Positions 4,163 through 42,248 of a stretch of DNA of 42,248 nt are shown in pieces. Both the position numbers and the translations under genes were made by a program. Source of the DNA: a virus; the IMG/VR virus record IMGVR_UViG_3300014546_000001, one strand, 5' to 3'. The notes under the pieces were generated by a model that was not told the origin of the DNA, did not search any database, and was given only the letters and a program-made list of their open reading frames with translations. Positions within the stretch are counted from its first letter, which is position 1. Every line of letters starts with the position of its first letter.

Positions 4163-5341
4163 ATGAATCAATACGGAGCGCCATATATGGGCAGCAAGTC
4201 AAAAATTGCCGAGGATATACTTGCAATATTACCACGCGGGAAAAGGTTTGTTGATTTATTCGGCGGTGGATTTGCAATGACGCATTGTGCGATGTTATCC
4301 GGAAAATATGAAGAGTTTTATTATAATGAATTAAACCCGCTTGTGGTGGATATGATTAAAAAAGCCATAGCCGGAGAATACAAAAACGAGTGCAGGTGGA
4401 TTGACCGGGAAACGTTTTTAAACCTTAAAGATACAGACGGTTATATAAAATATTGCTGGAGCTTTGGGAATAAGGGGGAAGCCTATCTTTATGCGAAAGA
4501 AATTGAGCCTTGGAAAAAAGCTTTACACTATGCCCGAGTTTTAGGCGATTGCAGCCTATTAAAAGAATTTGGCATTGATTCAACCGGCAGCAGTCAGGAT
4601 ATAAAAGCCAACAAAGATGAATACAAAGAAAAATATATAAAATGGTATTTGAAAAATATATGCCTATCAGACGCCGATTTTAACCGCCTTAAAAACGATT
4701 TGGATAAAAAGATAAAAGACCAGAAAGAAGAACTGCGGCAATATTTGTGCAACGCGTTGAAAGAATCGGGCTTAACGGCGACGGAAGTTGACCGGCGGTT
4801 AAACACGCATATGTCCAAGCATTACTTCGGGCGTTCGCAGTGGGCTTTTCCTACGCGTGAAGAATATAATAAAATGCGCGCTTTTATGCCGCTTAAGCCT
4901 TATGACGAGGTTTACGGTTATCAAGAGTTGCTGCAAAGTCTGCAAAGGCTGCAAAGTCTGGAAATTCTGGAAATTCTGCAAAGTATGGAAAGTCTGCAAA
5001 GGCTGCAAAGGCTGCAAAGTCTGCAAAGTCTGCAAAGGCTGGAAATCAACTGCGGGAGCTATGAAGATTATCAATATAAAGACGGGGATGTTGTCTATTG
5101 CGACCCTCCTTACGAAAATACTGCCAAATATTCAGAAGACGGATTTAATCATAAAAAGTTTTACGATTGGGTTGCCAGTCGCCCGTATCAGGTTTATTTT
5201 TCAAGTTATGAAATAAGCGATACCCGTTTTTATAAGGTATGGAGCAAAGAAAAGACCCAACTTCTACACGGGCAAGGGACTGGAGCGAAAGTTCAAGAAA
5301 CGGTATATTGCAATCAGCCCGACAAAGTTATGTTGTTTTAA
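4163..5341 (+). CDS. N6-adenine DNA methyltransferase (Dam-like, D12 class) with internal tri-peptide repeat insertion
   Basis: The N-terminal PYMGSKSKI...DLFGGGFA is a SAM-binding motif; DPPY is the catalytic motif. A 39-aa LQS/LQR repeat lies between them. Confidence 0.8.
   Translation: MNQYGAPYMGSKSKIAEDILAILPRGKRFVDLFGGGFAMTHCAMLSGKYEEFYYNELNPLVVDMIKKAIAGEYKNECRWIDRETFLNLKDTDGYIKYCWSFGNKGEAYLYAKEIEPWKKALHYARVLGDCSLLKEFGIDSTGSSQDIKANKDEYKEKYIKWYLKNICLSDADFNRLKNDLDKKIKDQKEELRQYLCNALKESGLTATEVDRRLNTHMSKHYFGRSQWAFPTREEYNKMRAFMPLKPYDEVYGYQELLQSLQRLQSLEILEILQSMESLQRLQRLQSLQSLQRLEINCGSYEDYQYKDGDVVYCDPPYENTAKYSEDGFNHKKFYDWVASRPYQVYFSSYEISDTRFYKVWSKEKTQLLHGQGTGAKVQETVYCNQPDKVMLF
4931..5047 (+). 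repeat. 13 tandem in-frame 9-bp repeats (ctgcaaagK / ctggaaatt) inside the Dam-like MTase
   Basis: Direct visual repeat; it encodes (LQS/LQR/LEI)x13. Confidence 0.9.
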
Positions 5342-11088: not shown

Positions 11089-11694
11089 GTGGCGCAAATG
11101 GCTTTGATTTATTTTCTTCTTGGCGGTTTTCTCCGGCGCTGGTATGGCGGGCTTTTCCCGGACGATAAATATAAAGTGCTGGGAAATCGGGCGTTGCAGA
11201 CCGGCGTAATGATTGGCGTTATGCTAGGCATATTTGTTGATGATTGGCAGAGTTGGCGCGATTGGCTTGTTTCCGGCGTGGTTGCCTTATGGCTGCAGTT
11301 CCAGTTTTGGAGCCGCGGCCACGGCGCAGTATATGACTTGTCGCGTGGCGGCTACCCGGACGAAAAAACTATAAAACGTTATAATGAGCGCTGGTATCAT
11401 ATACCTTGCGACTGGCTGGCAGAAAAGCGCTTTTTTAGCTTTTACGGGTGGGGATATGACTTTACTTATATGCTTTTGCGCTACACTTGCCCGATGTTGC
11501 CGATGATTTTATTTGACTGGAAATATACTTTAATCGGGTTAAGCGTTGCGCCGGTGTATGCTTTCTGTTGGCAATGGAGCGAGTCCGACGTTTGGTGTTT
11601 TAAATTAAAAGGCTTAAGCACCGCTACAAACTTGGCAGAGGTTATTTGCGGGGGTGTTTTTTATGCCGGATGTTATCTTTTGGGGGCGCTATGA
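11089..11694 (+). CDS. membrane protein, multi-TM, W-rich
   Basis: Several hydrophobic segments. Confidence 0.45.
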   Translation: MAQMALIYFLLGGFLRRWYGGLFPDDKYKVLGNRALQTGVMIGVMLGIFVDDWQSWRDWLVSGVVALWLQFQFWSRGHGAVYDLSRGGYPDEKTIKRYNERWYHIPCDWLAEKRFFSFYGWGYDFTYMLLRYTCPMLPMILFDWKYTLIGLSVAPVYAFCWQWSESDVWCFKLKGLSTATNLAEVICGGVFYAGCYLLGAL

Positions 11695-30079: not shown

Positions 30080-31354
30080 TTAAAATTGTCCATCGTTACC
30101 TCCTTTGTCAACAAATAGGCTTTCGGATTTTTTAAATAGAACTTCAAATTCTCCTGTTCTCCCGCGTCTGTTCTTTGCTACGATTATTTTGGCTTTACCT
30201 TTGACGCGCTCCATTTCTTCAAGCCATTTGTTGTATTTTTTCTCTTCCGTTTCTTCCGGCTTTTGTAACATTAACAGGTTTTCCGCTGTATAAACGAACA
30301 TTACAAGGTTAGAATCCTGCTCAATACTGCCGGAGCCGCGCAAGTCCGACAATATCGGCGATTTAACGTCACGCCCGGCGTTGGAACGGTTTAACTGACT
30401 TAACAACAGAATCGGAATATTTAATTCTTGCGCGATTATTTTAACTTTACGCGATAAGTAGGTTAAAAGCGCCAGTTGGTCTTTAAACCGCTTTTCGGAG
30501 CGTAAAATATGCAGGTGGTCAATAATTATCAAACTTAAATCTTTTTTTCCGGCGCATATTGCCGATATTTTTTCAACAGTGATATCCGCGTCGTCTATAA
30601 ATTCAAGCGGCAACTCATTTTCAAGACTTTTAGACTTTTCAACAACCGCGTAAAATTCTTCTTGAGTGATTTTTGAAAAATCCGATATACGCAGGGAAGA
30701 ACATACAAGCCTCTTGTGCATTTCTACCTTTGTCATTTCAAGGGAAAAATATAAAACATTGCCGCCTGCTTGCGCTATTTGCGTTGCAATATTCAGCGCC
30801 AGTGTGGTCTTTCCGCCGCCGGAATAACCGCCCAGCGTGATAAGTTCGCCCTTTTCAAAACCGCCGATAAGCCGGTCAAGGCTTGGAAACCCGGTTTTAA
30901 CTACCCGCGGGTTGTCTTTGCCCTGATATTCAAGTTCGGCGTCGGCTAAAAATCTATCTGAGGCGTTTTCTTCGGATTTTGGGAATAATTCAAAATGCTC
31001 AATCTCAAAAGCTTTTGTTACGTCTTCGGTTGTGTATAGCTTTTGACCGGCTATTTTTGCAAGCTCCCGTTCTTTCCAGTCTTCTACCAACTTTAAGGCG
31101 TAACAGTCAAACATTATCGGTTTTGAAAACTTTGTGTCCCGATTAAGCTCAAGCAGTAACTGAAAATTTACTTTTCCTTTTAAGACGTCGCGCAGGCTTA
31201 ACAAATCAAAATTTCCCAGCTCTACCATTGCAGAAAAAATTTCTCTTGCTGTTGCGTCCGGCAAAAATTCAGCCTTAAAATTTCCTTTAAGTCTTGTAAA
31301 ATTTTCAGGGAAAGCGACAAGCTCACTTAAAAACGTGTATTCAGCCTCATTCAT
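30080..31354 (-). CDS. dnaB: replicative DNA helicase (DnaB family)
   Basis: Walker A GGYSGGGKTT, LSQLNRS and DLRGSGSIEQDSN motifs. Confidence 0.9.
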   Translation of the reverse strand: MNEAEYTFLSELVAFPENFTRLKGNFKAEFLPDATAREIFSAMVELGNFDLLSLRDVLKGKVNFQLLLELNRDTKFSKPIMFDCYALKLVEDWKERELAKIAGQKLYTTEDVTKAFEIEHFELFPKSEENASDRFLADAELEYQGKDNPRVVKTGFPSLDRLIGGFEKGELITLGGYSGGGKTTLALNIATQIAQAGGNVLYFSLEMTKVEMHKRLVCSSLRISDFSKITQEEFYAVVEKSKSLENELPLEFIDDADITVEKISAICAGKKDLSLIIIDHLHILRSEKRFKDQLALLTYLSRKVKIIAQELNIPILLLSQLNRSNAGRDVKSPILSDLRGSGSIEQDSNLVMFVYTAENLLMLQKPEETEEKKYNKWLEEMERVKGKAKIIVAKNRRGRTGEFEVLFKKSESLFVDKGGNDGQF

Positions 31355-31358
31355 TTTT

Positions 31359-32003
31359 TTACTTCCAGTCCGATGTTGCCCATTTTATCTCTTCCTCTTT
31401 ATCGGCGTATCCGCCCTCAACAGCTTTTTGCCATTTTGATTTTTGCAGGAAAAAGTCAAAATCGGCTCGCCACTTTCCCGAATCTCCACGCAAAAAAGAG
31501 CTTTCGTCAAGTGCTTTTTCCATCTGGTTGATAAATTCATCAAAACCACCAGCGTCTTTTATCCGTTGTTTAAGTTTGTTTTTTCTTTCATCGGTCAAGA
31601 TTTTTATTTGAGATAAACCGTATTTTTCTAAAACAGAATTGATTTTTTCAATGTCAAATTCACGAAAAACAATTTTATTGTTTTTTAAATATAATTCTTG
31701 TTTATGTTCTTGTTCTTCGTTTACGTTTATGTTTATGTTTAGGATATCGTTCGGTATCCGGTCGGTATTATTTTTTTCTTTCCAGTAGTTTCTTGATATT
31801 TCACCGTTTTTTTTGCAACGCACATTAAAATCTTCAAATTCTTTGTCAATTTGTGATTTTATAAAACGCCATACGCCGCAATCAACGTCAATATTCGGAT
31901 ATTGTAAAATTGCCTGAAAAATAGCAGCTTGTTTTTCAACGGGCAAGTCTGATAAAAGCTCCCACCATTCAGGATAGATACGCGGAGAAAATTGTTTTTT
32001 CAT
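31359..32003 (-). CDS. replication-associated protein (initiator/helicase-loader candidate)
   Basis: Upstream of dnaB and coupled to it on the same strand. Confidence 0.4.
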   Translation of the reverse strand: MKKQFSPRIYPEWWELLSDLPVEKQAAIFQAILQYPNIDVDCGVWRFIKSQIDKEFEDFNVRCKKNGEISRNYWKEKNNTDRIPNDILNININVNEEQEHKQELYLKNNKIVFREFDIEKINSVLEKYGLSQIKILTDERKNKLKQRIKDAGGFDEFINQMEKALDESSFLRGDSGKWRADFDFFLQKSKWQKAVEGGYADKEEEIKWATSDWK

Positions 32004-32085
32004 CTCTTTCGGCTTTCAAAAAGGTGGGGTTATAGCGTGTAACCATTTTTGCCGAAAGAGTTATAATATTTTGATACTATAACCC
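32004..32085. promoter_or_regulatory. two interleaved 10-bp inverted repeats in the divergent control region
   Basis: ctctttcggc (32004-13) pairs with gccgaaagag (32051-60). ggggttatag (32026-35) pairs with ctataacccc (32076-85). TTATAAT lies at 32061-67. Confidence 0.45.
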
Positions 32086-32210
32086 CATTGTTAAAATTTA
32101 TCTTTCGGCATCTTTAACTTTATAACAAAAAAAGTTAAAGTAAATTTAAAATTGAGTTATAAACAAGGGCGGATTTTTCCTGTTGATAACTTTTCTTAAA
32201 TTCCTGCATA

Positions 32211-32239
32211 TTTACAAAAGCGCTTTTGCTTGTTAATCT
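32211..32239 (+). promoter_or_regulatory. promoter TTTACA-N17-TAATCT for the baseplate/fibre operon
   Basis: Read directly; AAGAGGG RBS and ATG at 32259 downstream. Confidence 0.35.
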
Positions 32240-32258
32240 ACAATCAAGAGGGCAAAAG

Positions 32259-32621
32259 ATGAGTGTTGATATTTTGATAGACCCGGCAACAAACGATATA
32301 GCGCACCGCAACGGTTTAATCCGTTATGCCGTAAGTGGAAACGAAACGGCGCAGCGGGTTATTACGCGTATTCGCCGCTTAAAGGGCGAGTGGTTTATTG
32401 ATACGACCGCCGGTATGCCGTATATTCAGGATATTTTAGGCAAGCGGGATATTAACTACTTCAAACTTTTGCTTAGAAAAGAGATTTTAAATACTGACGG
32501 CGTGCAGAGTATTAACAACTTCCGCTTGTCTTTTAACTCAAAAACTGGGCATATATCCGTATATGTTGAAATTAAGGTTGACGGGAAGTATATCCCGATT
32601 GTGCAGGAGTTCACGCTATGA
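32259..32621 (+). CDS. baseplate protein (XkdS/DUF2634- or gp25/W-like); ATG start with RBS
   Basis: Small protein immediately upstream of a baseplate-J-like gene. Confidence 0.45.
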   Translation: MSVDILIDPATNDIAHRNGLIRYAVSGNETAQRVITRIRRLKGEWFIDTTAGMPYIQDILGKRDINYFKLLLRKEILNTDGVQSINNFRLSFNSKTGHISVYVEIKVDGKYIPIVQEFTL

Positions 32622-33838
32622 GTGCAAACGTTTACGGTATGACTTCAACGGGCTTTAAGCCTAAAAGGCTCCGCGATTTGCTTGACGAAACAATGGCGGA
32701 TATTCGGGCAATCACGGACGAAGACGGGCAAGCCGTATTTATTAACGAAACGGACGACAGCATAATCGGGCAGTTTAACGCGATTGTTTGCGAGCAGCTT
32801 GCCGATTGCTGGCAACAAGCATACGCCGCCAGCACGCAGTTTGACCCGCTTAACGCTTTCGGCGTGGCTTTGCGCTCGCTTGTCCAATTAAACGGCATTG
32901 TTCCGGCTTATGGTTCAGCAACACAAATAAACGTTACTTTGACCGGGACTTCCGGCACGGTTGTGCCTGCCGGTTCGCAAATATCTGACGTTAACGCAAA
33001 CACGATTTTCAGCTTGAATAGTGATGTTGTTATCGGCAGTGCCGGAACGGGGACAGGAGTCGCTACTTGTAACACGCTCGGCGAAATTAACCCGGCAAAC
33101 AACACGATTATTCAGATTTTAACCCCGGTTTATGGCTGGCACAATGTAACAAATACCAGCGTGGCGGTGCTTGGCGATGACCCGGAAACGGACAACCAAC
33201 TGCACATCAAACAGCAGCGCGAAACGTCAAATACTTCATATTCGCAAGTTGATGCGCTATATGCCGGAATAACAAACCTTGCCGGGGTTGATTATGTGCG
33301 TATATACCAGAACTGGACGCTTGAAACGGACGATAAAGGAATTCCGGCAAAAACGATTGCCGCTGTTGTTGACGGAGGCGATACAGAGGCAATTGCAAAT
33401 GTTATGTGGCTTAAAGCTCCGATGTTGTCAAACTATGCCGGGAATTTGGAGCACCCCGTAACAATGTTTGACCGATTCGGGCTTGCCTATCAAATAACAT
33501 TTTACCGTCCGGAAAAAGTCCCGGTGTATATTGATTTGGATATAACCATAACAGACGCAAGCATTTATCCGGCGGATGCCTACGACCAAATAAAGCAAAA
33601 TATTATTGATTATGCAGCATACGGGCTTAATTCTTCAAGCGGGTTTCCGCCGGGCTCTCCGGTTATTTACAGCCGCCTTTATACGCCTATCAATGAAGTC
33701 CCGGGCTTCAAGATAAATCATCTTTATATCGGAACGAGTGCAAGCCCGACCGGGACAAGCGACCTTGAAATGGACTGGCTGCAGGTTGCAGAGTTTACCG
33801 CAGACAATATCAATATTGAACAATCGGTGGGAGCTTAA
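32618..33838 (+). CDS. baseplate J-like protein
   Basis: 406 aa; position between the W-like and DUF2313-like genes; ATGA overlaps. Confidence 0.55.
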   Translation: MSANVYGMTSTGFKPKRLRDLLDETMADIRAITDEDGQAVFINETDDSIIGQFNAIVCEQLADCWQQAYAASTQFDPLNAFGVALRSLVQLNGIVPAYGSATQINVTLTGTSGTVVPAGSQISDVNANTIFSLNSDVVIGSAGTGTGVATCNTLGEINPANNTIIQILTPVYGWHNVTNTSVAVLGDDPETDNQLHIKQQRETSNTSYSQVDALYAGITNLAGVDYVRIYQNWTLETDDKGIPAKTIAAVVDGGDTEAIANVMWLKAPMLSNYAGNLEHPVTMFDRFGLAYQITFYRPEKVPVYIDLDITITDASIYPADAYDQIKQNIIDYAAYGLNSSSGFPPGSPVIYSRLYTPINEVPGFKINHLYIGTSASPTGTSDLEMDWLQVAEFTADNINIEQSVGA

Positions 33839-33843
33839 AAGCA

Positions 33844-34566
33844 ATGGCGGAAGCGCTAAGCAAATTAAAAATTGATTATAGCGAAGTCCGCAAGGATGTT
33901 GTTGCCGCCGGGCTTGACCGGATTTTGGCACAATACAAACATTCATATTTGTTCAAACAGCTTTTGTCTGTATGGCTTAAACAATGCCAACAGCTATATG
34001 ACGCGATTATTGATTTGCAGGAATACCGGACAATCTATTCGGCAACCGGGGACACGCTGGACGGCTTGGGGCGGATAGTCGGCTCAAACCGGCAGAATTT
34101 CAATTATTCGGACACATATTATTTTACACCGGACAAACCGGGCGTAGGCTGCGACAACGGCTATGCTTGGTGTAAAAATGCGCCGCAAGCCGGCATATCT
34201 TTGCAAAACGATGATTTATACCGCAATTCAATTTGGCGTAAAGCCATATCAAATTTTGTTAAGTTTGGCAGCGTCCCGGAAATTCAAGACGTTGTTTCCG
34301 CCTATATGGACGAGCCCGTTGGATTTGAAACAACAAACCCGTTTACGGGGACGCTTGTTGTTTCTGCAGATATCGGCTTGACTAATTTGGAGATTTTAAC
34401 TTATACTCAAAACACAGAACAGGTTGAACACCAGTTCCGTATACCGTATCCGACAACAACAGATTTTGAGGGCGTTGTCTTTTATGTTCCGCAAAATGCC
34501 TTTGCACCAGACCGCGAGGGAGTCGGGGCAGACAACGGGCGCGCCGCCGTAAGAGGGAGAGTTTAA
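33844..34566 (+). CDS. tail protein (DUF2313 / Mu gp48 / P2 gpI-like)
   Basis: Position directly before the tail fibre. Confidence 0.45.
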   Translation: MAEALSKLKIDYSEVRKDVVAAGLDRILAQYKHSYLFKQLLSVWLKQCQQLYDAIIDLQEYRTIYSATGDTLDGLGRIVGSNRQNFNYSDTYYFTPDKPGVGCDNGYAWCKNAPQAGISLQNDDLYRNSIWRKAISNFVKFGSVPEIQDVVSAYMDEPVGFETTNPFTGTLVVSADIGLTNLEILTYTQNTEQVEHQFRIPYPTTTDFEGVVFYVPQNAFAPDREGVGADNGRAAVRGRV

Positions 34567-34569
34567 ACG

Positions 34570-36186
34570 ATGGTAGATACAAGAACAGTTACATTGCCGG
34601 CAATTTGGGCTGATGACGCTATAACCGAGATTCCTACGCCGCCGATTGCAAATACAACCTACCGCAACACGGATTTAGGCTCAACCGAACTGTTGCAGGG
34701 CTGGCCTTATCAAAAAATCGTTGACTCTGCCGACTTCAACCAGACGTTGTGGCTTATATCAAACCTCGTCAAAAGTTGCGAGCAATATGGCATTATGCCT
34801 TGGTGCGCGTCAACGACATACAAACAAAACGGAATTTGCCTTGCCTCAAACGGAATTTTCTACTGGGCGAAACAAGATAACACCGGCGTAAACCCGGTAA
34901 ATGATTCCGGTATGACAAACTGGGGCGTATTCTTAGACCCGGGCGATAACTTCCTTACAGAAACGGTTTTGACGAGCCAAATAAACCTATGCGAAAAGCT
35001 GGCAAACAAGACGCAGACGTTGTCGTCTTCCTCTACCTCTACGCAATACCCGTCGGCTAAAGCGGTTTATGATAATATTAACAATCTGCAAACATCACTA
35101 CAATCGGCGATTAGCGCAATACAGGCGAACTACGTTACCACGAACACCGCGCAGACGATAACGGGGACAAAAGTTTTTAATGGAGCTGCGCCGATAAAGT
35201 TAGGAAAAGCGGGCGGAACATATACAGAGGTTCAATTTACTTCTGACGGTTTATCTAAGCTTGGCGGTTTGCGAAATATTAGAGAGGGAAACTCTGATAA
35301 TATGCAGATGTATGTTGCGTCTAAAGACGGATCTTCTATTCTTGGCTCAATCCAGTTAAATAGAGATAATAATAACGGTATATTGGCAACTGCCCCGCAC
35401 CCTGCCGCGTCTACCAATTATAATAATCCTGCAATTATGACAGCAGGACGAGCAGCTGACCCGGCGCAAAACTTTAATCTTCTGCACCGCTCTGGAGACG
35501 AAACGTTTAGCGGAGTCAAAACCGTACAATCAAATAATCCGCGTTTTGGTTTTAAACATACTGAGATTGACGTAACAACGAATCCGTCTGCTGAAAAATC
35601 AGCAAAAATTTTTGTTTCTGATAAAAATAATAAATGGATTTCAGAAATAGGGTTTTATCAAAAGACAGATGGGCAGATTTTATCACAAATAACCGTAAAT
35701 AATAATACTAATAATAATACTTCTGGAACGGCCTCATTACAAATAGTTTGTAAAAAAGATGGGAGTAAATTCGCAACTTGTCCTACACCTCCGAACCCCG
35801 CAGATTCCTCTGCCAAAATTGCAACGACGTCTTGGGTGAACAGTCGTATAACGTCTATTATGAATAGTAATAGCGAGGTTACGTTTACACCTTTAACTTC
35901 TGGCCCAATAGGAACAGGCAATATACAATTAAGCCAGCCGTTTACAAAATTCTCTGAGATTGTTTTTTTGGGTGCTGATGATCGCGAAACCTATGTCATC
36001 CCTACAATATTTAACACAAAGATGTTGGATTATTGTTTGGATAAGCTTAATAAACCTGTTTTTTTGCCTTGTGGCAGCACTTCTTATTATATAATAAAAC
36101 CGTATTCGGGTGGAAGCTCAACAACACTGTTCGTTCAAGATAGAGAAAACGCAAGAGTGTCTGCTATCTATGGCATAACATATTAA
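34570..36186 (+). CDS. tail fibre protein: constant region (aa 1-430) plus tip cassette 1 (aa 431-538)
   Basis: The conserved site ATAACGTCTATTATG lies at 35848-35862 and encodes ...RITSIM at the constant/variable junction. Confidence 0.75.
   Translation: MVDTRTVTLPAIWADDAITEIPTPPIANTTYRNTDLGSTELLQGWPYQKIVDSADFNQTLWLISNLVKSCEQYGIMPWCASTTYKQNGICLASNGIFYWAKQDNTGVNPVNDSGMTNWGVFLDPGDNFLTETVLTSQINLCEKLANKTQTLSSSSTSTQYPSAKAVYDNINNLQTSLQSAISAIQANYVTTNTAQTITGTKVFNGAAPIKLGKAGGTYTEVQFTSDGLSKLGGLRNIREGNSDNMQMYVASKDGSSILGSIQLNRDNNNGILATAPHPAASTNYNNPAIMTAGRAADPAQNFNLLHRSGDETFSGVKTVQSNNPRFGFKHTEIDVTTNPSAEKSAKIFVSDKNNKWISEIGFYQKTDGQILSQITVNNNTNNNTSGTASLQIVCKKDGSKFATCPTPPNPADSSAKIATTSWVNSRITSIMNSNSEVTFTPLTSGPIGTGNIQLSQPFTKFSEIVFLGADDRETYVIPTIFNTKMLDYCLDKLNKPVFLPCGSTSYYIIKPYSGGSSTTLFVQDRENARVSAIYGITY
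35848..35862 (+). repeat. cassette junction site E (ATAACGTCTATTATG), inside the tail fibre gene
   Basis: Identical 15-mer; 23 nt identical to site A. Confidence 0.85.
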
Positions 36187-36503
36187 GCGTTTTTGAATGT
36201 ATAAAACATACTTAACCAAACATTACGGCAAGCGTCAGAAAAGTATATTGAATCTCCTTGTGACAAAGGGATAAAAACACTTGCGGACTGGTCAATATAA
36301 GCGGAACCACCTTGTGAGGCTGCTCCTGCCGCTATCTCTTGTCCGTTTACATAACACCTCACACCTTTTACAACCCCGCCCCATTTTGCATTTATCATTA
36401 AAACGCCTTTGCGCGGGGCTGTAAATGGTGATGATTGTAAAGGAAACGTTACCGATTGCCCCGCTGTATAGTCTAACTCAAAAAAAGCCGGGTTACTATT
36501 CAT
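36183..36503 (-). CDS. alternative tail-fibre tip cassette 2 (106 aa)
   Basis: Begins at site A; convergent with the fibre gene, and the stops share TTAA at 36183-36186. Confidence 0.55.
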   Translation of the reverse strand: MNSNPAFFELDYTAGQSVTFPLQSSPFTAPRKGVLMINAKWGGVVKGVRCYVNGQEIAAGAASQGGSAYIDQSASVFIPLSQGDSIYFSDACRNVWLSMFYTFKNA

Positions 36504-36515
36504 AATAGACGTTAT
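36501..36515 (-). repeat. cassette junction site A (inverted relative to E)
   Basis: The reverse complement is ATAACGTCTATTATGAATAGTAA; it is the start codon of ORF 36183..36503. Confidence 0.85.
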
Positions 36516-36528
36516 CAGACGCTAGGAT

Positions 36529-36918
36529 TTATGCCGTACGTTTCCAAATATTCACGGTTAAAGCCGTCCTTGTAACAGTGCCGACAATACCGGAAGCGGC
36601 TGAATCAGTTGTTAAGCCAACACCTTTACCGGGGTTATTAGTTGATCCGTTTTGTGCGGTACCTACATCAACATTGTATAAATTATCGAAGAATGAAGAT
36701 TGCCCTAAACTTCCGTTATTCATAGCCAAACCTCGGTTATATTCTCCGTTCGTAAATCCCATTGTTTTTCCGTTTCCTTTGACTGGGACACTTGTGTTAA
36801 CGGAAGTAATCAGCGACGAGCCTACTTTTTCCCACGTAGAGCCGTCAATAATAGCAGCAAGGGGGCAAGTGCTTTGCGTTCCAAAATAGAGGCTGCCGAC
36901 CGGATAAACTGTCCCCAT
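36529..36918 (-). CDS. alternative tail-fibre tip cassette 3 (129 aa, tail-collar-like)
   Basis: Begins at site B. The sequence VYPVGSLYFGT...P...IIDGSTWEKV resembles the phage tail-collar motif. Confidence 0.55.
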   Translation of the reverse strand: MGTVYPVGSLYFGTQSTCPLAAIIDGSTWEKVGSSLITSVNTSVPVKGNGKTMGFTNGEYNRGLAMNNGSLGQSSFFDNLYNVDVGTAQNGSTNNPGKGVGLTTDSAASGIVGTVTRTALTVNIWKRTA

Positions 36919-36930
36919 AATAGACGTTAT
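36916..36930 (-). repeat. cassette junction site B
   Basis: Reverse complement gcATAACGTCTATTATGggg. It contains the VRR-NUC stop TAA and the start codon of ORF 36529..36918. Confidence 0.85.
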
Positions 36931-37337
36931 GCGCCCGCTTTTAATTTCTCAACAAAATTGATAGCATCACCAAGCCCGCGCCAAATTGTATACTCAAAGC
37001 CTAGTGCCAGGACTTTCTGTTCAAATTCCCGTTGCGTGTCCGATTGCCTGCCGGTTGCGGTTTTTATCTCTACAAAATAGGTTTTTCCGGCGTGCAGGAT
37101 AATTAAATCGGAAACACCGGAACGAACGCCCTCGGCTTTTAATTTTGCCGCGACAACCGGATTCCGCCACCCGCCATTAGGAACGGCAAAAAAAGTAAAA
37201 TCTTTGTGCGCGTTTTCAACAAGCTTTAAATATTGTGCAATGGTGCACTGTATTTTGTGTTCTTCATCGTGTGGCTTTTGGCGCACGTTAAGCCCGCTTT
37301 TTTTTAGTTCCAGCGCCCAAGGGTTATTTTTTGGCAT
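36927..37337 (-). CDS. VRR-NUC domain nuclease
   Basis: The PD-(D/E)xK core is SDLIILHAGKTYFVEIKT. The C-terminal stop is embedded in cassette site B. Confidence 0.6.
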   Translation of the reverse strand: MPKNNPWALELKKSGLNVRQKPHDEEHKIQCTIAQYLKLVENAHKDFTFFAVPNGGWRNPVVAAKLKAEGVRSGVSDLIILHAGKTYFVEIKTATGRQSDTQREFEQKVLALGFEYTIWRGLGDAINFVEKLKAGA

Positions 37338-37485
37338 AATCTATCCTTTTATAAAATAAAACCCCTCTATCGTAAAATAAAGGGGGCTTTGTGTAGGTAT
37401 GGTTTGTTAAGATAATAATATGGTGATATATACTTTTTGGATGAACTATATGGAAAAAAATAATTATACCGCCTCTTATGTTAGC

Positions 37486-37743
37486 TTATTTTTCCGGTTT
37501 GTCAACATCAAATAAAGAAAACTGAACTTTCTCTGCCTTTTTTATCTTTTCTTCATCACGGACGGTTGCTCCGATAATGAAGTCTTTAACTGTTATAAGC
37601 GTGCATAAAATCTGCTCCATAACTTCAATCTGATAATCGGCGTCCTTTTGGCTGATTTTCTTTATTTCCACCCAACGCGGGTATAGCTTGCGCCTATACT
37701 CAAGCTCCCGCCGGATTGCCGCTATTTGCTCATTTATTGTCAT
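37486..37743 (-). CDS. hypothetical protein
   Basis: ATGA-coupled to the downstream gene. Confidence 0.4.
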   Translation of the reverse strand: MTINEQIAAIRRELEYRRKLYPRWVEIKKISQKDADYQIEVMEQILCTLITVKDFIIGATVRDEEKIKKAEKVQFSLFDVDKPEK

Positions 37744-38660
37744 TTTTTAGCCTCGTCTTTGTTGTTTTCCGGTTGCAGTGTCTGATTAAATAACGGCTCT
37801 GGTTCTTCAAAATTAACTCCGGGTTTGCCGCTTTCGTCATCGTCAAGCTGAATATTGCCGTAATCAATCGGCATATTTTCAAGCCCGGCGGTTAAGTCTT
37901 GATTGTCAACATATTCAATTTTTCCGTCTTTTTCTGCCGATTCGTCTTTTATAAAGCCGGTTTGCATTTCAAGCGACATTATACCCCACTTGCCTAAAAG
38001 CTGACGCAACATCGTTTTAAATGCCATTTGGTCAAAATTTTTACTCCAAAAGCTCTCTTTTTTATCGGCTTTTAAATCGTATTTATAGCTCTGCGAATAG
38101 GTTTTGGCGTGTTCTTCCATTTTGGACTTGCTCCAGTATAGTGTTTTTTTAAACCCGTTTAAAAGCTCAAAATATGCCATATATCCGATGACTTCCCGCT
38201 TTTCCCGCTCTTCTTCATCAGCAATAAAGGAAAACAAAAACTTTCCGGTGTATTTGTCGCGTCCCAAAAATTCGCCTTGCCGCACTTCCATAACGTCTAA
38301 ATCCGCATATTGCCCGGAACGCAAGGCGAGCTGGATATATCCTTTATATCCAAGTTGAAAAGTTGCCACAACCCGGAGTAAATTGCCTTTCTTGTCTTTT
38401 TCCTTAAACGGGACAATGTAGTAATACCCAAGCTGCGGACTCGGTGCAAGGTTTAAGCTTTCCCCGGTTAATCCTGCTGCAAATATTGTTGAATGTTCGC
38501 AAGCCGCAAGCTGCGGGTTTGTTGACACTGCCGAAACAATGTGCGTAATAAATGATTGCCCGCGCTCTCCGCCTATAACATCGGCTACTTTTTGCTTTAC
38601 CGCTGTTGTTGCCATAAATGAAGAAAAGTTGCCGCTTTTTGCTGGTTTTTGTAAACTCAT
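37740..38660 (-). CDS. single-strand annealing protein (RecT/Red-beta-like, putative)
   Basis: 306 aa with an acidic C-terminal tail (DDDESGKPGVNFEEPEP), in a recombination context. Family assignment is tentative. Confidence 0.35.
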   Translation of the reverse strand: MSLQKPAKSGNFSSFMATTAVKQKVADVIGGERGQSFITHIVSAVSTNPQLAACEHSTIFAAGLTGESLNLAPSPQLGYYYIVPFKEKDKKGNLLRVVATFQLGYKGYIQLALRSGQYADLDVMEVRQGEFLGRDKYTGKFLFSFIADEEEREKREVIGYMAYFELLNGFKKTLYWSKSKMEEHAKTYSQSYKYDLKADKKESFWSKNFDQMAFKTMLRQLLGKWGIMSLEMQTGFIKDESAEKDGKIEYVDNQDLTAGLENMPIDYGNIQLDDDESGKPGVNFEEPEPLFNQTLQPENNKDEAKK

Positions 38661-38771
38661 TTTTTTACACTCCTTTAAAAAATGTTAGCGTTGAAACATA
38701 GTTAAATATATCCAGATTTTAAATAATGTAAAGATGTTTTTTTATTTTTTTAACAATGGCGTTATTGGACA

Positions 38772-38806
38772 ATAAAAAACAAGGCAGCCACCTGACAGCC
38801 GCCTTG
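38772..38806 (-). terminator. hairpin caaggc-N15-gccttg followed by TTTTTT on the - strand, downstream of 38871..39398
   Basis: Read directly. Confidence 0.4.
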
Positions 38807-38870
38807 CCCTTGTATAAACACTAACTATTTAAAAGAATGTGAAGTGACTAACAATTTCAACAATGATTGT

Positions 38871-39398
38871 TTACATCGCCTCAAGTTCTTTGTCAATCTC
38901 ATTTATGCGTTGTGCATAACTTTTCATTTTTTCAATCTGTTCGGCGTATTCCTCAACCGTAGCCCTGCCGGTAGCAATCTTAACGCCGATATAGTCCATT
39001 GAGCGAAGTTTGCCGTTTAATGCACTCTTTTCGTTTTCAAGGTTGTTTTTTTTCTTGTCAGCGTCATATTTTGCCTTTTCTTCATCCGTCATACTCTCGT
39101 AGTGGATTTTCTCAATATCGGCAACTTTTCGCACCGTGTAGCGGTTTTTCCAGCAGTCAATCGTATATTCGCCGCCGTTTTTATTGCACTCAATCGCACA
39201 AGCCGTATAAAGTGCATAACGTTCTTCTGTTTTATATTCATCGCTGCCGTTAAAGTGGTCTTCAAAAGAAACATCGTATTCCGTATAAGGCTTATTAAGC
39301 TTCATAACGGCAACTTTACCGTTGACAATATCAAAATCCGCCCACTCCGTATGTTTCGGATATTCCGGCGCTGCCGTTTTAATAACTTCATCAGTCAT
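38871..39398 (-). CDS. hypothetical protein with C-terminal coiled-coil
   Basis: AGGAG RBS. Confidence 0.45.
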   Translation of the reverse strand: MTDEVIKTAAPEYPKHTEWADFDIVNGKVAVMKLNKPYTEYDVSFEDHFNGSDEYKTEERYALYTACAIECNKNGGEYTIDCWKNRYTVRKVADIEKIHYESMTDEEKAKYDADKKKNNLENEKSALNGKLRSMDYIGVKIATGRATVEEYAEQIEKMKSYAQRINEIDKELEAM

Positions 39399-39472
39399 AA
39401 GTTTAAACTCCTATTTTTGGTTGCAACCGCTTTTATATTACCCGGTTTTCGGTTGTAGTCAATACGAATCGT

Positions 39473-39487
39473 ATAACGTCTATTATG
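39473..39487 (+). repeat. cassette junction site D
   Basis: tcgtATAACGTCTATTATGaatac; it is the start codon of ORF 39485..39835. Confidence 0.85.
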
Positions 39488-39835
39488 AATACAAGCACGT
39501 CTTTTGGCGTTCCTAATTATTCAACGGCGTCATCTGAAATTAAAATGAGTAACTATAATTCAACAAGTTCATATTGGACAGCCCCTTATAATTGTTTTGC
39601 AACATTTTATATAAAAAGCACTGGCGGTGCTGGTGATTCATTGTGGGCTATTTATGCACAAGCAAGTGGCTCTTCTGCTTGGAATAGAGCTGCGGGAGGC
39701 GGGAGCGGCACTTATTCAGCATTTGAGGGTGCTCAATTATTTTTTAAAGCGAACGATAAAATATATATGACTTTAAATCAATCCGCTTCTTTTAATAAAG
39801 TCTATATGACTTATTATCGTTTGACTTCTGCTTAA
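39485..39835 (+). CDS. alternative tail-fibre tip cassette 5 (116 aa)
   Basis: Begins at site D. Shares a WTAP(Y/S)N motif with cassette 4. The upstream frame is open for only 26 codons and has no ATG. Confidence 0.5.
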   Translation: MNTSTSFGVPNYSTASSEIKMSNYNSTSSYWTAPYNCFATFYIKSTGGAGDSLWAIYAQASGSSAWNRAAGGGSGTYSAFEGAQLFFKANDKIYMTLNQSASFNKVYMTYYRLTSA

Positions 39836-40125
39836 ATCTCTGGGGCAAACCACCCGGTTGTATTTTGATTATTTACTCCTGCTTTAAATTTGAAGTTATC
39901 CCCGGACGAAACAACAAAGAAAAACGGCAGTGCCAGTTGCAGATAGGCGCCGCCGGAAACAGTTTGGTCAAAAGCCGTTCCGTTTATATTTAAATCAATC
40001 AACTGATTGTCTAGACACACTACCCAACAGAAAAGATAACCGTTACTCGGAGCCGTCCAGTTTGCTAGTTGAGTATAAGTTAAATGCGTGGTTTTGTCAT
40101 AATTAGGACGTCCCCGAGTATTCAT
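39832..40125 (-). CDS. alternative tail-fibre tip cassette 4 (97 aa)
   Basis: Begins at site C; convergent with cassette 5, and the stops share TTAA at 39832-39835. Confidence 0.5.
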   Translation of the reverse strand: MNTRGRPNYDKTTHLTYTQLANWTAPSNGYLFCWVVCLDNQLIDLNINGTAFDQTVSGGAYLQLALPFFFVVSSGDNFKFKAGVNNQNTTGWFAPEI

Positions 40126-40137
40126 AATAGACGTTAT
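40123..40137 (-). repeat. cassette junction site C
   Basis: Reverse complement tcgtATAACGTCTATTATGaatac, identical to D over 24 nt; it is the start codon of ORF 39832..40125. Confidence 0.85.
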
Positions 40138-40229
40138 ACGACTCTCTGTGTATAAGTTTGAATTATATTGAAAAATACAAATTGAGCAAATAAATTTAAG
40201 ATAAAATTAACTATTCGCGAGGGGTAACA

Positions 40230-40721
40230 ATGGAAACAAAGTTCTGTAAAAAGTGCGGAAAAGAAAAGCCTGTATCCGAATTTATACCGAACGGACGATA
40301 TAGGTGCGGTTATCAAACGTATTGCCGAAAATGCACCAATGAATACCAGAAAATGCGCCGGCTTGGCAAGAGCGAGAAGAAAGTTTGCCGGATGTGTGGG
40401 CGCGAGTTGCCGATTAGTGCTTTCCCGAAAGATAAAGGATATAAAAGCGGACGCAGCAATCAATGTCGGGATTGCCAAAACAAGCAGCACCGCGAGGCGC
40501 TGGAAAGGCAAAAAGAGAATGGCTTTTGTTTGAGTGAAAAGGAAAGAAAAGAAAGGCAGGCAATAGCGGATTTTGAACAAAAGCTCGGCGGGTTTAAGGT
40601 GTCAATCTTAAATTATGCCAAAAACGGAGAATATAAATATACAGTCGCCAGCACAAAAGGCGACTTCTTTCAAACAAATTCAAAAGAAGAGTTTATCAAT
40701 TTCCTAAAAGAAAGGGCGTGA
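40230..40721 (+). CDS. zinc-ribbon protein (four CxxC pairs), possible regulator
   Basis: CKKCGK...CRKC...CRMCGR...CRDC. Confidence 0.45.
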   Translation: METKFCKKCGKEKPVSEFIPNGRYRCGYQTYCRKCTNEYQKMRRLGKSEKKVCRMCGRELPISAFPKDKGYKSGRSNQCRDCQNKQHREALERQKENGFCLSEKERKERQAIADFEQKLGGFKVSILNYAKNGEYKYTVASTKGDFFQTNSKEEFINFLKERA

Positions 40722-40724
40722 AAG

Positions 40725-41282
40725 ATGATTTACAAAAGTTCGGCTTATTATCCTTTTTTTCAAAAGATTTGCCAAGAGTTCGGCTGTGCCGTATCGGATT
40801 TGGAGAGTTCACGGCGCGGGCGACCGTATGTTCAGGCTAAAAGTGTTGCGATTCGGCTTTTAAGGCTTGCCGGGTTAAGCTATCCGCAAGTTGGGGCGAT
40901 ATTAGATAAAAACCACTCAACCGTTAGGCACGCAGATAGAAAATGCCAGAGTATACCGGAATTAAACGAAATGGCGCTGCAGTTTTATCTGCAGTTCCGG
41001 CAGATAGAGAGTCGCGCCGATGATGACCTTATTAAAAAAGAGATATTTAGAAACGAGCTTGACCGGGAGAGAATCGTAGAACTGTATAATAAAGGATTGC
41101 CTGTTGATAAAATTGCGGCAGAGCTTGAGGCAACCGTTGTTTATGTAGAAAATCATCTTAAATTTATAAGAAGTGTTTATCAAGTTAAAAAAGTCCCGGA
41201 TTATAAGACACATACGACCCGAGAAATATTTTTTCAAAAAAATCAAAAAAAAGTGTTGACAATATCAAAAAGTGTGATATAA
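40725..41282 (+). CDS. DnaA domain IV-like HTH protein
   Basis: RPYVQAKSVAIRLLRLAGLSYPQVGAILDKNHSTVRHADRK resembles the DnaA C-terminal DNA-binding domain (...R.IAMYL.R.....SL..IG..FG.RDHTTVLHA). Confidence 0.5.
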   Translation: MIYKSSAYYPFFQKICQEFGCAVSDLESSRRGRPYVQAKSVAIRLLRLAGLSYPQVGAILDKNHSTVRHADRKCQSIPELNEMALQFYLQFRQIESRADDDLIKKEIFRNELDRERIVELYNKGLPVDKIAAELEATVVYVENHLKFIRSVYQVKKVPDYKTHTTREIFFQKNQKKVLTISKSVI

Positions 41283-41330
41283 ATGACCGTGTAAACAGGT
41301 AAACACCAATTTAAAGGGAGAAAAAAAATA

Positions 41331-41561
41331 ATGTTTGAAGAAATAACAACAATTTCGGAATGCGAGGAGAAAATCGCAGAGCAAAAACGGCAAATTCGGC
41401 TTAATGAAATCGCCAACGATAGCTATTATTTAAGTAATCAGCGCAAGGAAGATGAGCAGGAATTAAATGCGCTTGAACGTCGTTTGCGCGAGCTCAAAGA
41501 ACAAGAAGACGAGCCGTCTTTACTGGACTTATGCAAGGAATTAAAGGAGATGGCACAATGA
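41331..41561 (+). CDS. small acidic coiled-coil protein
   Basis: GGGAG RBS; ATGA overlap with the next gene. Confidence 0.4.
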   Translation: MFEEITTISECEEKIAEQKRQIRLNEIANDSYYLSNQRKEDEQELNALERRLRELKEQEDEPSLLDLCKELKEMAQ

Positions 41562-42248
41562 AACTTAAAGAATATTTGATAAAAGCCGGAATAAATTTTG
41601 AAGAGAAAGATGGAGCAATTACCGTCGGAGGTTCGCTTTACCTACGCAACACGGGGATAACGAGCCTGCCGGATAACCTGACCGTCGGCGGGTGGCTTGA
41701 CCTAAGCAAAACGGGGATTACGAGCCTGCCGGATAACCTGACCGTCGGCGGGTGGCTTGACCTAAGCAGCACGGGAATTACGAGCCTGCCGGATAACCTG
41801 ACCGTCGGCGGGTGGCTTGGCCTAAGCAACACGGGAATTACGAGCCTGCCGGATAACCTGACCGTCGGCGGGTGGCTTTACCTAAGCAACACGGGAATTA
41901 CGAGCCTGCCGGATAACCTGACCGTCGGCGGGTGGCTTGACCTAAGCAACACGGGAATTACGAGCCTGCCGGATAACCTGACCGTCGGAGGGGGGCTTTA
42001 CCTAAGCAACACGGGGATAACGAGCCTGCCGGATAACCTGACCGTCGGAGGTTCGCTTTACCTAAGCAACACGGGAATTACGAGCCTGCCGGATAACCTG
42101 ACCGTCGGCGGGGGGCTTGACCTAAGCAACACGGGGATAACGAGCCTGCCGGATAACCTGACCGTCGGCGGGTGGCTTTACCTAAGCAGCACGGGAATTA
42201 CGAGCCTGCCGGATAACCTGACCGTCGGCGGGTGGCTTGACCTAAGCA
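41558..42248 (+). CDS. N-terminal part of leucine-rich-repeat protein (runs off the window end; continues at 1..621)
   Basis: MKLKEYLIKAGINFEEKDGAITVGGSLYLRNTGITSLPDNLTVGGWLDLSKTGITSLP.... 20-aa units with an LxLxxTxIxxLPxxLxxxxx spacing. Confidence 0.65.
   Translation, partial: MKLKEYLIKAGINFEEKDGAITVGGSLYLRNTGITSLPDNLTVGGWLDLSKTGITSLPDNLTVGGWLDLSSTGITSLPDNLTVGGWLGLSNTGITSLPDNLTVGGWLYLSNTGITSLPDNLTVGGWLDLSNTGITSLPDNLTVGGGLYLSNTGITSLPDNLTVGGSLYLSNTGITSLPDNLTVGGGLDLSNTGITSLPDNLTVGGWLYLSSTGITSLPDNLTVGGWLDLS
41621..42248. repeat. about 10.5 tandem copies of a 60-bp repeat (20-aa LRR-like unit)
   Basis: Direct repeats with substitutions confined to a few codon positions: D/Y/G, N/S/K, W/G/S, and gga att versus ggg ata. 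Confidence 0.95.

Follow-up and report, generated by a model that had tools for sequence, protein, structure and literature searches.

How a phage could exchange the tip of its tail fibre by DNA inversion when no enzyme for the reaction can be recognized in its genome is the question raised by this locus. To our knowledge, each of the textbook tail-fibre inversion switches (Mu, P1, p15B) is accompanied by a dedicated invertase. The window (the whole stretch of DNA analyzed, 42,248 nt) is a complete circular genome of 42 kb from a human-gut phage, with a 55-nt terminal overlap. An earlier note on this sequence had described in it a shufflon-like system for tip switching, either host-dependent or independent of any recombinase.

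Crossover sites and tip cassettes

The 15-mer ATAACGTCTATTATG is present in the window in five exact copies (35848+, 36501-, 36916-, 39473+ and 40123-), at the positions and on the strands given in the earlier note, and no extra copies with up to two mismatches were found in the window. Chance expectation is 0.11, and five or more copies were seen in none of 100 shuffles. Shufflons have three or more copies of one crossover site, in both orientations, and the five copies here agree with this. Orientations had been described as alternating; their order is actually +,-,-,+,-, sites 2 and 3 being direct repeats. Identity extends further between pairs of copies, as had been noticed: sites 1 and 4 share 23 identical nt (35844-35866 = 39469-39491), sites 1 and 5 have 25 nt in common at 100%, and sites 4 and 5 have 27 nt at 96%, including a 24-nt exact run. 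Site 1 (35844..35866, + strand), the expressed junction, reads TCGTATAA-CGTCTA-TTATGAATA. Site 4 (39469..39491, +) and site 5 (40119..40141, -) read the same and have non-coding left flanks. Site 2 (36497..36519, -) reads TCTGATAA-CGTCTA-TTATGAATA, and site 3 (36912..36934, -) reads GCGCATAA-CGTCTA-TTATGGGGA.

The tail-fibre gene sits after the baseplate genes Sheath_initiator, Baseplate_J and Phage_Wedge1. Its constant part, aa 1-430 (34570..35859, +), ends in ...TSWVNSRITSI, and WVNSRITSI is unchanged in 8 relatives. The ATG codons of the five sites are all in frame with ITSI and each opens a distinct ORF of 97-129 aa, in agreement with the earlier note. The ATG of site 1 is codon 431 of the 538-aa fibre ORF and starts its last 108 aa, i.e. 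cassette A (35860..36186, +), which is the one fused to the fibre in the window. Silent cassette B (106 aa; 36183..36503, -) is convergent with A, and their stop codons overlap in a common TTAA at 36183-36186. Silent cassettes D (116 aa; 39485..39835, +) and C (97 aa; 39832..40125, -) are arranged in the same way around a TTAA at 39832-39835, and carry the previously noticed WTAP(S/Y)N motif as WTAPYN and WTAPSN, respectively. Silent cassette E (129 aa; 36529..36918, -) is a candidate for a T4 gp10/gp11-like head domain, with N-terminus GTVYPVGSLYFG and a weak Pfam match to Gp10_C (E = 6.5e-4). Most other genes have a Shine-Dalgarno (SD) sequence; none was found upstream of the silent cassettes, B and D among them.

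Cassettes E and D are separated by a passenger block on the minus strand (36927..39398) that includes VRR-NUC (36927-37337), orf85 (37486-37743), RecT (37740-38660) and orf175 (38871-39398). Pfam and PHROG matches to VRR-NUC and RecT bear out the recombination block proposed earlier. The last codons and TAA stop of the VRR-NUC gene sit within the left arm of site 3.

Inversion isomers in related genomes

Inversion was assessed by comparison of contigs between samples and from assembly breaks. Contigs from other human-gut samples, 99.2-99.8% identical to the window, differed from it only by clean inversions ending at the sites. Either cassettes D and C had turned over together, or the 2.57-kb VRR-NUC/RecT block had. 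In contigs L103 and L105 (99.8% identical), window positions 39466-40144 were inverted with breakpoints within the sites, which placed cassette D on the opposite strand. In L106 and L107 (99.2-99.4% identical), positions 36916-39487 were inverted and the passenger block was flipped as a unit; this block was also inverted in L083, L087, L088, L141, L143 and L147. Among contigs that encode an identical RecT protein, some had the block pointing the same way as the fibre gene and others the opposite way. In the collection, 45 blocks were listed for the exact baseplate J protein and 52 for RecT. Half of the ten contigs with identical baseplate J ended inside the shufflon, and in three of these five the contig stopped 19-54 nt after site 1 begins.

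The fibre was fused to the A family in L103, L105, L106 and L107, to an E-type cassette in L083 and to a B-type cassette in L104, the latter two types being silent in the window. The constant 5' part thus accepts different 3' cassettes in frame, as expected for a shufflon. Of about 20 cassette families, seven occurred both in fused form and, in a different genome, as silent copies. The window lineage and three other phage backbones together had at least 20 tip families, and repertoires varied between relatives, pointing to horizontal turnover. These results indicate that inversions in this phage lineage are real and recent. With isomers found between different samples among near-identical genomes, and flank/cassette pairs reassorted in relatives, the tip-switching interpretation of the earlier note was upheld.

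Search for a recombinase

All ORFs of at least 75 aa, antisense ones included, were searched for recombinase families. No serine, tyrosine or DDE recombinase was found in the complete genome using Pfam, PHROGs and NCBIfam, in line with the earlier note, and no dedicated recombinase gene of the rci, min or rin type, as would belong to a shufflon, was found in or near the locus. No match to PF00239 with a C-terminal HTH, the hallmark of serine invertases, was obtained. A faint HTH_7 match corresponded to a DnaA-domain-IV-like protein with no PF00239 alongside. A 26-bp serine-invertase site, consisting of two 12-bp half-sites and a 2-bp crossover, does not fit the arm/6-bp spacer/arm layout of the sites. 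Among ORFs without known function, none was long enough for a standard tyrosine recombinase. As none is encoded in the complete phage genome, the host most likely provides the enzyme in trans.

Site architecture and likeness to dif

The sites consist of arms (T)GTCG(C/T)ATAA and TTATGAATA flanking an asymmetric 6-bp spacer, a conserved layout of 8-10 bp, 6 variable bp and 9 bp. An inner dyad symmetry, CATAA-N6-TTATG, is present as in Xer/dif arms. A search of related phages for the site, as had been suggested, recovered the arms in four unrelated backbones (the window genome read complete and the three others in part, so that those three may encode a recombinase elsewhere). TCGCATAA and TTATGAATA were preserved even in phages whose fibre is just 32% identical, and TGTCGC was retained even in non-coding left flanks. 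The spacer differed between lineages. Four classes were found, each identical between the partner sites of one locus, as are the central regions of Xer/dif sites: CGTCTA at the five sites of the window, CTTCTG at both sites of the L085 pair and at the fibre site of L127, CTGATA in L097, L098, L113, L114 and L120, and TCGACA in L122. This is the layout of sites used by Xer-type tyrosine recombinases.

The XerD arm of dif, TTATGTnAAnT, is strongly conserved. The right arm of the phage site agrees with it at TTATG and one or two more positions only; its outer part, TTATGAATAGT, is off the consensus, which counts against Xer, and TTATGAA is absent from the dif sites predicted by a 2011 survey. The left arm is of the kind expected on the XerC side: alphaproteobacterial dif sites have GTCG(C/T)ATAA as left arm (PMC3025954), and the phage arm is identical to the dif arms of M. 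loti, Granulibacter and Gluconobacter. Its TCGCATAACGT matches the dif site of H. parasuis (PMC3025954 supplement), TGTTCGCATAACGTATATTATGTTAAAT, which agrees with the phage site at 20 of 28 positions.

A 19-mer scan of the genome collection gave two single-copy matches that look like chance. In microviruses of about 5 kb, one site lies between genes and combines these arms with canonical dif spacers, as in TTGTCGCATAA-TGTATA-TTATGAAT. Microviruses as a group are known to lack integrases, and no integrase was annotated in nearly the full gene table of one such genome. Use of host XerC/D by such microviruses has been reported (PMC3091885). In Acinetobacter plasmids, XerC/D sites in opposite orientation give rise to reversible inversions, which require identical 6-bp spacers and tolerate arm differences (PMC9947245).

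Which enzyme inverts the locus

We favour, with fair confidence, the view that the locus is an inversion shufflon run in trans by a Xer-type tyrosine recombinase of the host, XerC/XerD-like recombinases of chromosome dimer resolution being the leading candidates. To change its target, this phage would probably rely on an enzyme of its host. That the catalyst is a tyrosine recombinase, that it is encoded by the host and that it is Xer are each inferred from the features above. The multiple-inversion system would switch the distal tip of a myovirus tail fibre: recombination of site 1 (+) with any (-) site would invert the DNA in between, so that the constant part would be followed in frame by another cassette. 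The four further site copies each stand ahead of a promoterless, SD-less cassette of about 100 aa, and cassette D would come within reach once the D/C segment flips. The VRR-NUC/RecT block, of about 2.5 kb, is a passive rider flipping along between two sites. Both arms would be bound by protein, and the 6-bp overlap would have to match between partner sites.

Two further points count against Xer. The direct repeats 2 and 3 would let an unconstrained recombinase delete cassette E, which is retained in many genomes. Also, where Xer acts on sites other than dif, it normally depends on FtsK or accessory factors, and no such helper was recognized for this shufflon.

Another tyrosine (or other) recombinase acting in trans, distinct from chromosomal XerC/D, is an unlikely candidate. 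It could be a dedicated host invertase or could come from a co-resident prophage or plasmid, in the manner of Mpi-type global invertases. This would be compatible with a phage genome devoid of recombinases and with the non-canonical right arm, and a trans-acting invertase has already been proposed for a bifidophage locus (PMC6109161). It would leave unaccounted for the identity of the left arm to XerC arms of real dif sites and the same arms with canonical dif spacers in microviruses.

Somewhat less probable is an unrecognized recombinase or essential activator encoded by the phage itself. One candidate is a 163-aa zinc-ribbon protein (40230..40721, +), whose gene adjoins the last site in the window family and also, at 35% identity, in the unrelated L084/L085 backbone; it might tentatively be considered an accessory factor. 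However, its PHROG matches are to a Zn ribbon only, its homologues are few and lineage-restricted, no PDB relative was found, and L081 and L097 lack it at this place. VRR-NUC, whose gene overlaps site 3, matches a PHROG Holliday-junction resolvase family, but the VRR-NUC/RecT block does not belong to the shufflon in the three other backbones. Several ORFs of 150-200 aa have no annotation; they are too short for a standard tyrosine recombinase and match no recombinase family. Moreover, 5-kb microviruses bear the same site, and the single gene table inspected listed none of these genes.

Homology-driven exchange at the 15-25 bp repeats, carried out without a site-specific enzyme by RecT and the PD-(D/E)XK exonuclease encoded elsewhere in the genome (14905-15756), is very unlikely. 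Both proteins are present, and breakpoints would fall in the only shared sequence under any mechanism. Such exchange would not explain the dyad-symmetric CATAA/TTATG arms, their constancy over four backbones with a 6-bp centre co-changing in partner sites, or the retention of TGTCGC in non-coding flanks. In addition, identity ends sharply after 15-25 bp, whereas homology-driven systems prefer longer repeats, and RecT is not between the sites in L081, L084/L085 or L097, none being called in the parts of L097 read. Because the arms are conserved while the spacer changes, the recombinase-independent option of the earlier note is not favoured; its host-dependent option is, given the dif/Xer-like layout and the co-varying spacer. 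That the rearrangements are rare evolutionary accidents or inter-phage module exchange would fit evidence drawn entirely from between samples and repertoires differing between relatives, but is hardly credible given 99.8% identical genomes that differ only by precise inversions, a block in both orientations with an identical RecT protein, contigs breaking at site 1 in several samples, and a switch-like design of in-frame, SD-less cassettes with overlapping TTAA stops.

Implications

Extending the host-Xer proposal beyond this lineage is more tentative. Several unrelated tailed gut-phage backbones may drive a programmed host-range switch with host XerC/D, or with a single Xer, an idea to which we give slightly less than even chances. 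Fibre cassette junctions would then be dif mimics with private spacers; if so, no phage invertase gene would be needed and the switch would be insulated from chromosomal dif. Such a switch would represent the first shufflon driven by Xer as well as the first use of dif-like sites to switch a coding sequence, and the exploitation of Xer, so far for integration and plasmid-module shuffling, would come to include protein-coding phase variation. It would show phages outsourcing programmed receptor-binding variation to a universal host enzyme, in systems that recombinase-anchored searches for invertible loci would overlook. The signature (T)GTCGCATAA-N6-TTATGAATA ahead of promoterless cassettes could be used to survey gut viromes. 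As the lineage occurs in dozens of human-gut datasets and at least 20 tip families were found, the switch probably plays a part in how gut phages and their hosts interact over time.

Comparison with known systems

We know of no Xer-exploiting element that builds alternative reading frames of a structural gene or a phage host-range switch. IMEX such as CTXphi, the microvirus proviruses of Bacteroidales (PMC3091885) and the pdif modules of Acinetobacter (PMC9947245) resemble the present locus in lacking a recombinase of their own and in having dif-like arms with a 6-bp spacer. They differ in serving integration, dimer resolution or the shuffling of resistance modules; compared with these host-XerC/D elements, the site described here has a non-canonical XerD-side arm, and its Xer dependence is a proposal.

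In the R64 shufflon (Rci, sfx), multiple inversions between asymmetric sites in both orientations likewise switch C-termini, those of the adhesin PilV, but a dedicated tyrosine recombinase gene, rci, lies beside the locus, the site is another one, and the product belongs to a conjugative pilus instead of a phage fibre. Gin, Cin and Min (Mu, P1, p15B) exchange by inversion the variable C-terminal part of a tail fibre, as here, and Min also has multiple cassettes and many isomers. These systems rely on an adjacent serine invertase and a Fis-dependent enhancer, and their gix/cix-type sites span 26 bp and have a 2-bp crossover, whereas the present locus has an arm/6-bp spacer/arm site and no serine recombinase. 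In the Rin shufflon of Bifidobacterium prophages (Mavrich et al. 2018, PMC6109161), the locus ends with a gene for an Xer-like tyrosine invertase, which has no counterpart in the whole genome here, and the 11-bp rix repeat, TTCCCTAACCC, bears no relation to the present site. The same study noted one further phage inversion locus that lacks a recombinase and called trans-acting invertases unreported for phages (PMC6109161). Rin and the present locus have in common a proposed tyrosine-recombinase chemistry, their occurrence in the human gut, a receptor-binding protein with a constant N-terminal part, and several short C-terminal cassettes, each behind a short asymmetric crossover repeat.

Results

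The 15-mer ATAACGTCTATTATG was located by exact-match search at 35848 (+), 36501 (-), 36916 (-), 39473 (+) and 40123 (-), hereafter sites 1 to 5, and no sixth copy was found in the window with two mismatches allowed. Its chance expectation is 0.11, and five copies were reached in none of 100 shuffles. Identity extends beyond the 15-mer to 23 nt between sites 1 and 4, 25 nt between sites 1 and 5, and a 24-nt exact run between sites 4 and 5. At site 1 the ATG of the 15-mer opens tip A, which forms the C-terminal 108 of the fibre's 538 aa; at the other sites it opens the silent cassettes B (106 aa), E (129 aa), D (116 aa) and C (97 aa). The earlier note had claimed an identical 15-mer present five times, longer flanking identity in site pairs, and an ATG in each copy serving as first codon of a 97-129 aa ORF, all of which is borne out by these data. 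Cassette A is convergent with B, and D with C; in each pair the two stop codons share a palindromic TTAA (36183-36186 and 39832-39835). Shine-Dalgarno motifs of the AGGAG-, GGAG- or GGGG-type are found upstream of most window genes. When the four silent cassettes were inspected for such motifs, nothing but the site itself was seen upstream, so that independent translation of cassettes B, E, D and C is not expected. When the shufflon locus was scanned for promoters and terminators, the outcome did not exceed that for shuffled sequence.

Direct evidence for the role of the cassettes as fibre tips comes from relatives, in which the same cassette families are seen as the expressed fibre C-terminus; other tips in relatives contain Gp53-like_C, tail-collar or F5/8 type C domains. 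One cassette type is just 26 aa long (MNNKLQVVSSLPSSPNADTFYFIPE; viral contigs L080 11334-12641, L081 10770-12089, L144 5668-6951 and L155 9461-10744) and has separate genes after it, one of 427-439 aa (weakly matching an F5/8 type C domain) and two more of 98 aa and 130 aa. Certain 'cassettes' are thus 2.3-kb multi-gene units, resembling Sv+U of phage Mu.

Sister genomes, carrying the exact baseplate J protein and coming from other human-gut metagenomes, were aligned with the window. Contigs L103 (JGI 3300014709) and L105 (ERZ1742892), 99.8% identical to the window, had 39466-40144 (the D/C pair) inverted, and their alignments overlapped by a 27-nt repeat at both inversion ends. In L106 and L107, window 36916-39487 (the block from VRR-NUC to orf175) was inverted, at 99.2-99.4% identity. 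Among contigs with an identical RecT, this block was opposite to the fibre in L139, L140, L142 and L145, and co-oriented with it in L141, L143 and L147. L097 and L114/L120 are likewise inversion isomers, one having NTFLPAG... attached to the fibre and the other NSLYPVG.... More distant IMG/VR relatives displayed all kinds of re-pairing of cassettes with the five constant 'left flanks': an E-type cassette is fused to the fibre in L083 and a B type in L104, and the L089 fibre ends in a cassette found silent in L087. Clustering yielded about 20 cassette families, seven of them both fused in one genome and silent in another. Five of the ten sister contigs ended within the shufflon, three of these between 19 and 54 nt beyond the beginning of site 1, the behaviour expected of an assembler at a polymorphic junction. 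In ERZ1742911, at 135x coverage, the contig is likewise broken at site 1. The evidence for isomers consists of between-sample genome comparisons together with assembly breaks. Tail-fibre tip switching of the shufflon kind, as proposed in the earlier note, is supported by these inversion isomers and fibre/cassette re-pairings, and the locus is almost certainly a shufflon.

Alignment of 33 distinct site instances gave the consensus gtCgc-ATAACGTCTATTATG-aatA. In full, the phage site reads CAGTCGCATAA-CGTCTA-TTATGAATAGT, with arms TGTCGCATAA (left) and TTATGAATA (right); its core, CATAA-N6-TTATG, is dyad-symmetric. Immediately 5' of the 15-mer, TCG(C/T) is conserved in coding flanks, in which it encodes Ser-Arg, and also in non-coding flanks (sites 4 and 5; L081, L084, L085, L113 and L122), where TGTCGC is the rule. 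In other backbones sharing the fibre module alone, the arms are the same and the central six bases differ, agreeing within each set of partner sites: CTTCTG in the pair of L085 and at the fibre junction of L127, CTGATA in L097, L098, L113, L114 and L120 (where the fibre is just 32% identical and reads RITDIM), and TCGACA in L122. Constant arms with a spacer that needs only to match its partner are the signature of a tyrosine recombinase site, and the sites are very probably of this type. The asymmetric spacer would set the polarity of each site, so that inversely oriented copies would invert the DNA between them. The left arm of site 3 contains the VRR-NUC stop codon, which thus precedes the spacer, and recombination therefore never alters this gene. 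In L106 (16445-16867) and L143 (5323-5745) the VRR-NUC ORF is 140 aa, not 136 aa, and the adjacent site has one mismatch, suggesting an effect on the stop codon that the site arm contains.

The first 55 nt of the window are identical to the last 55 nt, which marks the window as a complete circular assembly with a length of 42,193 bp. By its annotation it is a myovirus genome, encoding terminase, portal, a MuF-like protein with intein and capsid; sheath, tape measure, baseplate hub, W, J and wedge proteins and fibre; and DnaB, RecT, VRR-NUC, a PD-(D/E)XK exonuclease, RNase H, two DNA methyltransferases and lysozyme. The absence of a recognisable recombinase, claimed in the earlier note, persisted in profile searches: no ORF of at least 75 aa (including antisense ORFs of at least 190 aa) had a Pfam match to serine, tyrosine or DDE recombinases, and ORFs run against PHROGs or NCBIfam gave no recombinase match either. 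Unannotated ORFs >200 aa were only a membrane protein and the tape measure.

Several other features were observed. The MuF-like head protein (8749-10455, +) contains an intein at aa 275-549 (Pfam Intein_splicing, E = 2.6e-10); within that region, on the other strand, a 192-aa ORF (9535-10113, -) with the look of a genuine protein and a weak UPF0102/PD-(D/E)XK-like match may encode a homing endonuclease. HTH185 (40725-41282), considered as the HTH of an invertase, was rejected: it is DnaA-domain-IV-like, adjoins a 60-bp array and is a predicted replication protein. The array, just downstream of it (10.5 tandem copies, 93% match), covers 41621-42248 and continues into 1-131 across the circular junction; its copy number varies in relatives, and it is probably an iteron-type replication origin. 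Certain 4-bp palindromes are strongly avoided in the whole window (GATC 6, GTAC 6, CATG 5, TCGA 5, GGCC 11), others being abundant by contrast (GCGC 203, CCGG 323, AGCT 169); the methyltransferases are a C5 enzyme (1558-2643) and a D12 N6-adenine enzyme (4163-5341). DnaB helicase and a DUF6291 protein (30080-32003, -) lie between the baseplate hub/spike and baseplate W/J genes. The DUF6291 gene is swapped for unrelated genes of 222-228 aa in L087 and L083, and DnaB is also missing in L087/L088; this slot is therefore a replacement hot spot. A polytopic membrane protein with the motif GFLRRWYGG is common to otherwise unrelated backbones with the same fibre module (window 11089-11694, +; L084 17396-18016; L090 2527-3141; L097 14253-14876); its gene is directly downstream of the shufflon in those other phages and 24 kb away in the window.

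Published dif sites read GGTGCGCATAA-TGTATA-TTATGTTAAAT in E. coli, TGTTCGCATAA-CGTATA-TTATGTTAAAT in H. parasuis, AAGTCGCATAA-GATAGA-TTATGGAACTT in M. loti and GTCGTATAA-GATATA-TTATGGAA in Granulibacter (PMC3025954). By this comparison both variants of the phage left arm, C and T, are identical to real XerC-side arms; the H. parasuis dif matches the phage site at 20 of 28 positions, and the phage site can be described as dif-like in both layout and sequence. A scan for the arm pattern with any spacer also returned single non-fibre sites in viral contigs (L117 7629-7651, L129 4616-4638, L121 886-908 and L131 1832-1854), and BLAST seeded with one of them retrieved about a dozen microviruses of ~5 kb (single sites in GenBank PQ006780, PQ006435, PQ006258, PQ006875 and OM869522). 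Six microviruses read in detail had one site each, five of them intergenic, with no CDS annotated over the site (spacers TACATA, TATATA, TGTATA, TATATC and TGCATA), and the sixth (PQ006780.1) within an annotated hypothetical-protein CDS. Four of the six kept the full left arm TGTCGCATAA, as in TTGTCGCATAA-TGTATA-TTATGAATTAAA and TTGTCGCATAA-TATATC-TTATGAATACA. The pattern in viral contigs and microviruses is (T)TGTCGCATAA-N6-TTATGAAT, with canonical dif spacers. The gene table of one microvirus genome, read almost to its end, lists no integrase. Such single sites could serve as attP, or for dimer resolution, with the same host enzyme. One contig, IMGVR 3300045988_156081, carries both a single site and a fibre shufflon.

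No GenBank phage matched in megablast of 32000-42248 or tblastn of the fibre, and identity of the portal protein to coliphage portals is only 28%; these searches therefore yielded neither a cultured relative nor a host. When 185,579 species genomes were scanned for host dif or prophage copies of ATAACGTCTATTATGAATA, a search blind to a host dif with another spacer, two single-copy matches and no prophage copy were obtained; both matches, in MAGs labelled Sulfurimonas sp. and Sphingobacteriales bacterium, look like chance. A plasmid database searched with a dif-like single site gave chance-level matches only. Haemophilus, prompted by the Pasteurellaceae dif match, was rejected as host, the genome having no USS or DUS, and Bacteroidales are unlikely because strong Shine-Dalgarno motifs precede most genes. 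For Alphaproteobacteria as hosts there is no more than a hint, from the matching dif left arm and from an E-type domain of 40% identity found in the prophage of an alphaproteobacterial MAG.

Discussion

Integrase-less gut microviruses have been proposed to integrate via host XerC/D at dif-like sites (PMC3091885), and reversible inversions occur in Acinetobacter plasmids between XerC/D sites of opposite orientation whose 6-bp spacers are identical, despite arm differences (PMC9947245). Given these precedents, the dif-like sites and the lack of a recombinase in a complete genome, a host Xer-type enzyme is the best candidate. The recombinase is probably supplied in trans; its identity with the host chromosomal Xer is advanced more tentatively, at or just short of an even balance. 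Speculatively, an Xer reaction halted at the Holliday junction could be finished by the adjacent VRR-NUC nuclease. Against Xer, the phage right arm departs from the canonical XerD arm beyond TTATG, and TTATGAA occurs in none of the dif sites predicted in a 2011 survey; sites 2 and 3 are direct repeats, which should permit deletion of E; and no Xer activator was identified for the phage locus. A non-Xer recombinase acting in trans fits all data except the dif-like arms.

That a hidden phage-encoded enzyme drives inversion is unlikely. The zinc-ribbon protein adjoins site 5 and recurs in L084 and L085, but it is missing at that position in L081 and L097, has few homologues and no structural relative in the PDB; its PHROG matches are confined to Zn ribbons, leaving a recombinase role unsupported. 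The conserved symmetric arms, like the co-variation of spacers between partner sites, are left unexplained by RecT-driven exchange at short homology. VRR-NUC and RecT are passengers of the shufflon; in other backbones they do not lie between sites.

Full-text literature searches found no description of such a recombinase-less tail-fibre shufflon; the nearest statement concerns a bifidophage inversion locus without recombinase, a trans-acting invertase being called unreported in phages (PMC6109161). In function the system is shufflon-like, as in Min (p15B), Rin (bifidophages) and R64, whereas the dedicated adjacent recombinase of those systems was not found at the phage locus, and its site layout does not fit that of serine invertase systems. 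With IMEX and pdif elements it shares dif-like sites and the lack of a recombinase of its own. What is new is that dif-like sites here serve another purpose, the in-frame switching of a structural gene.
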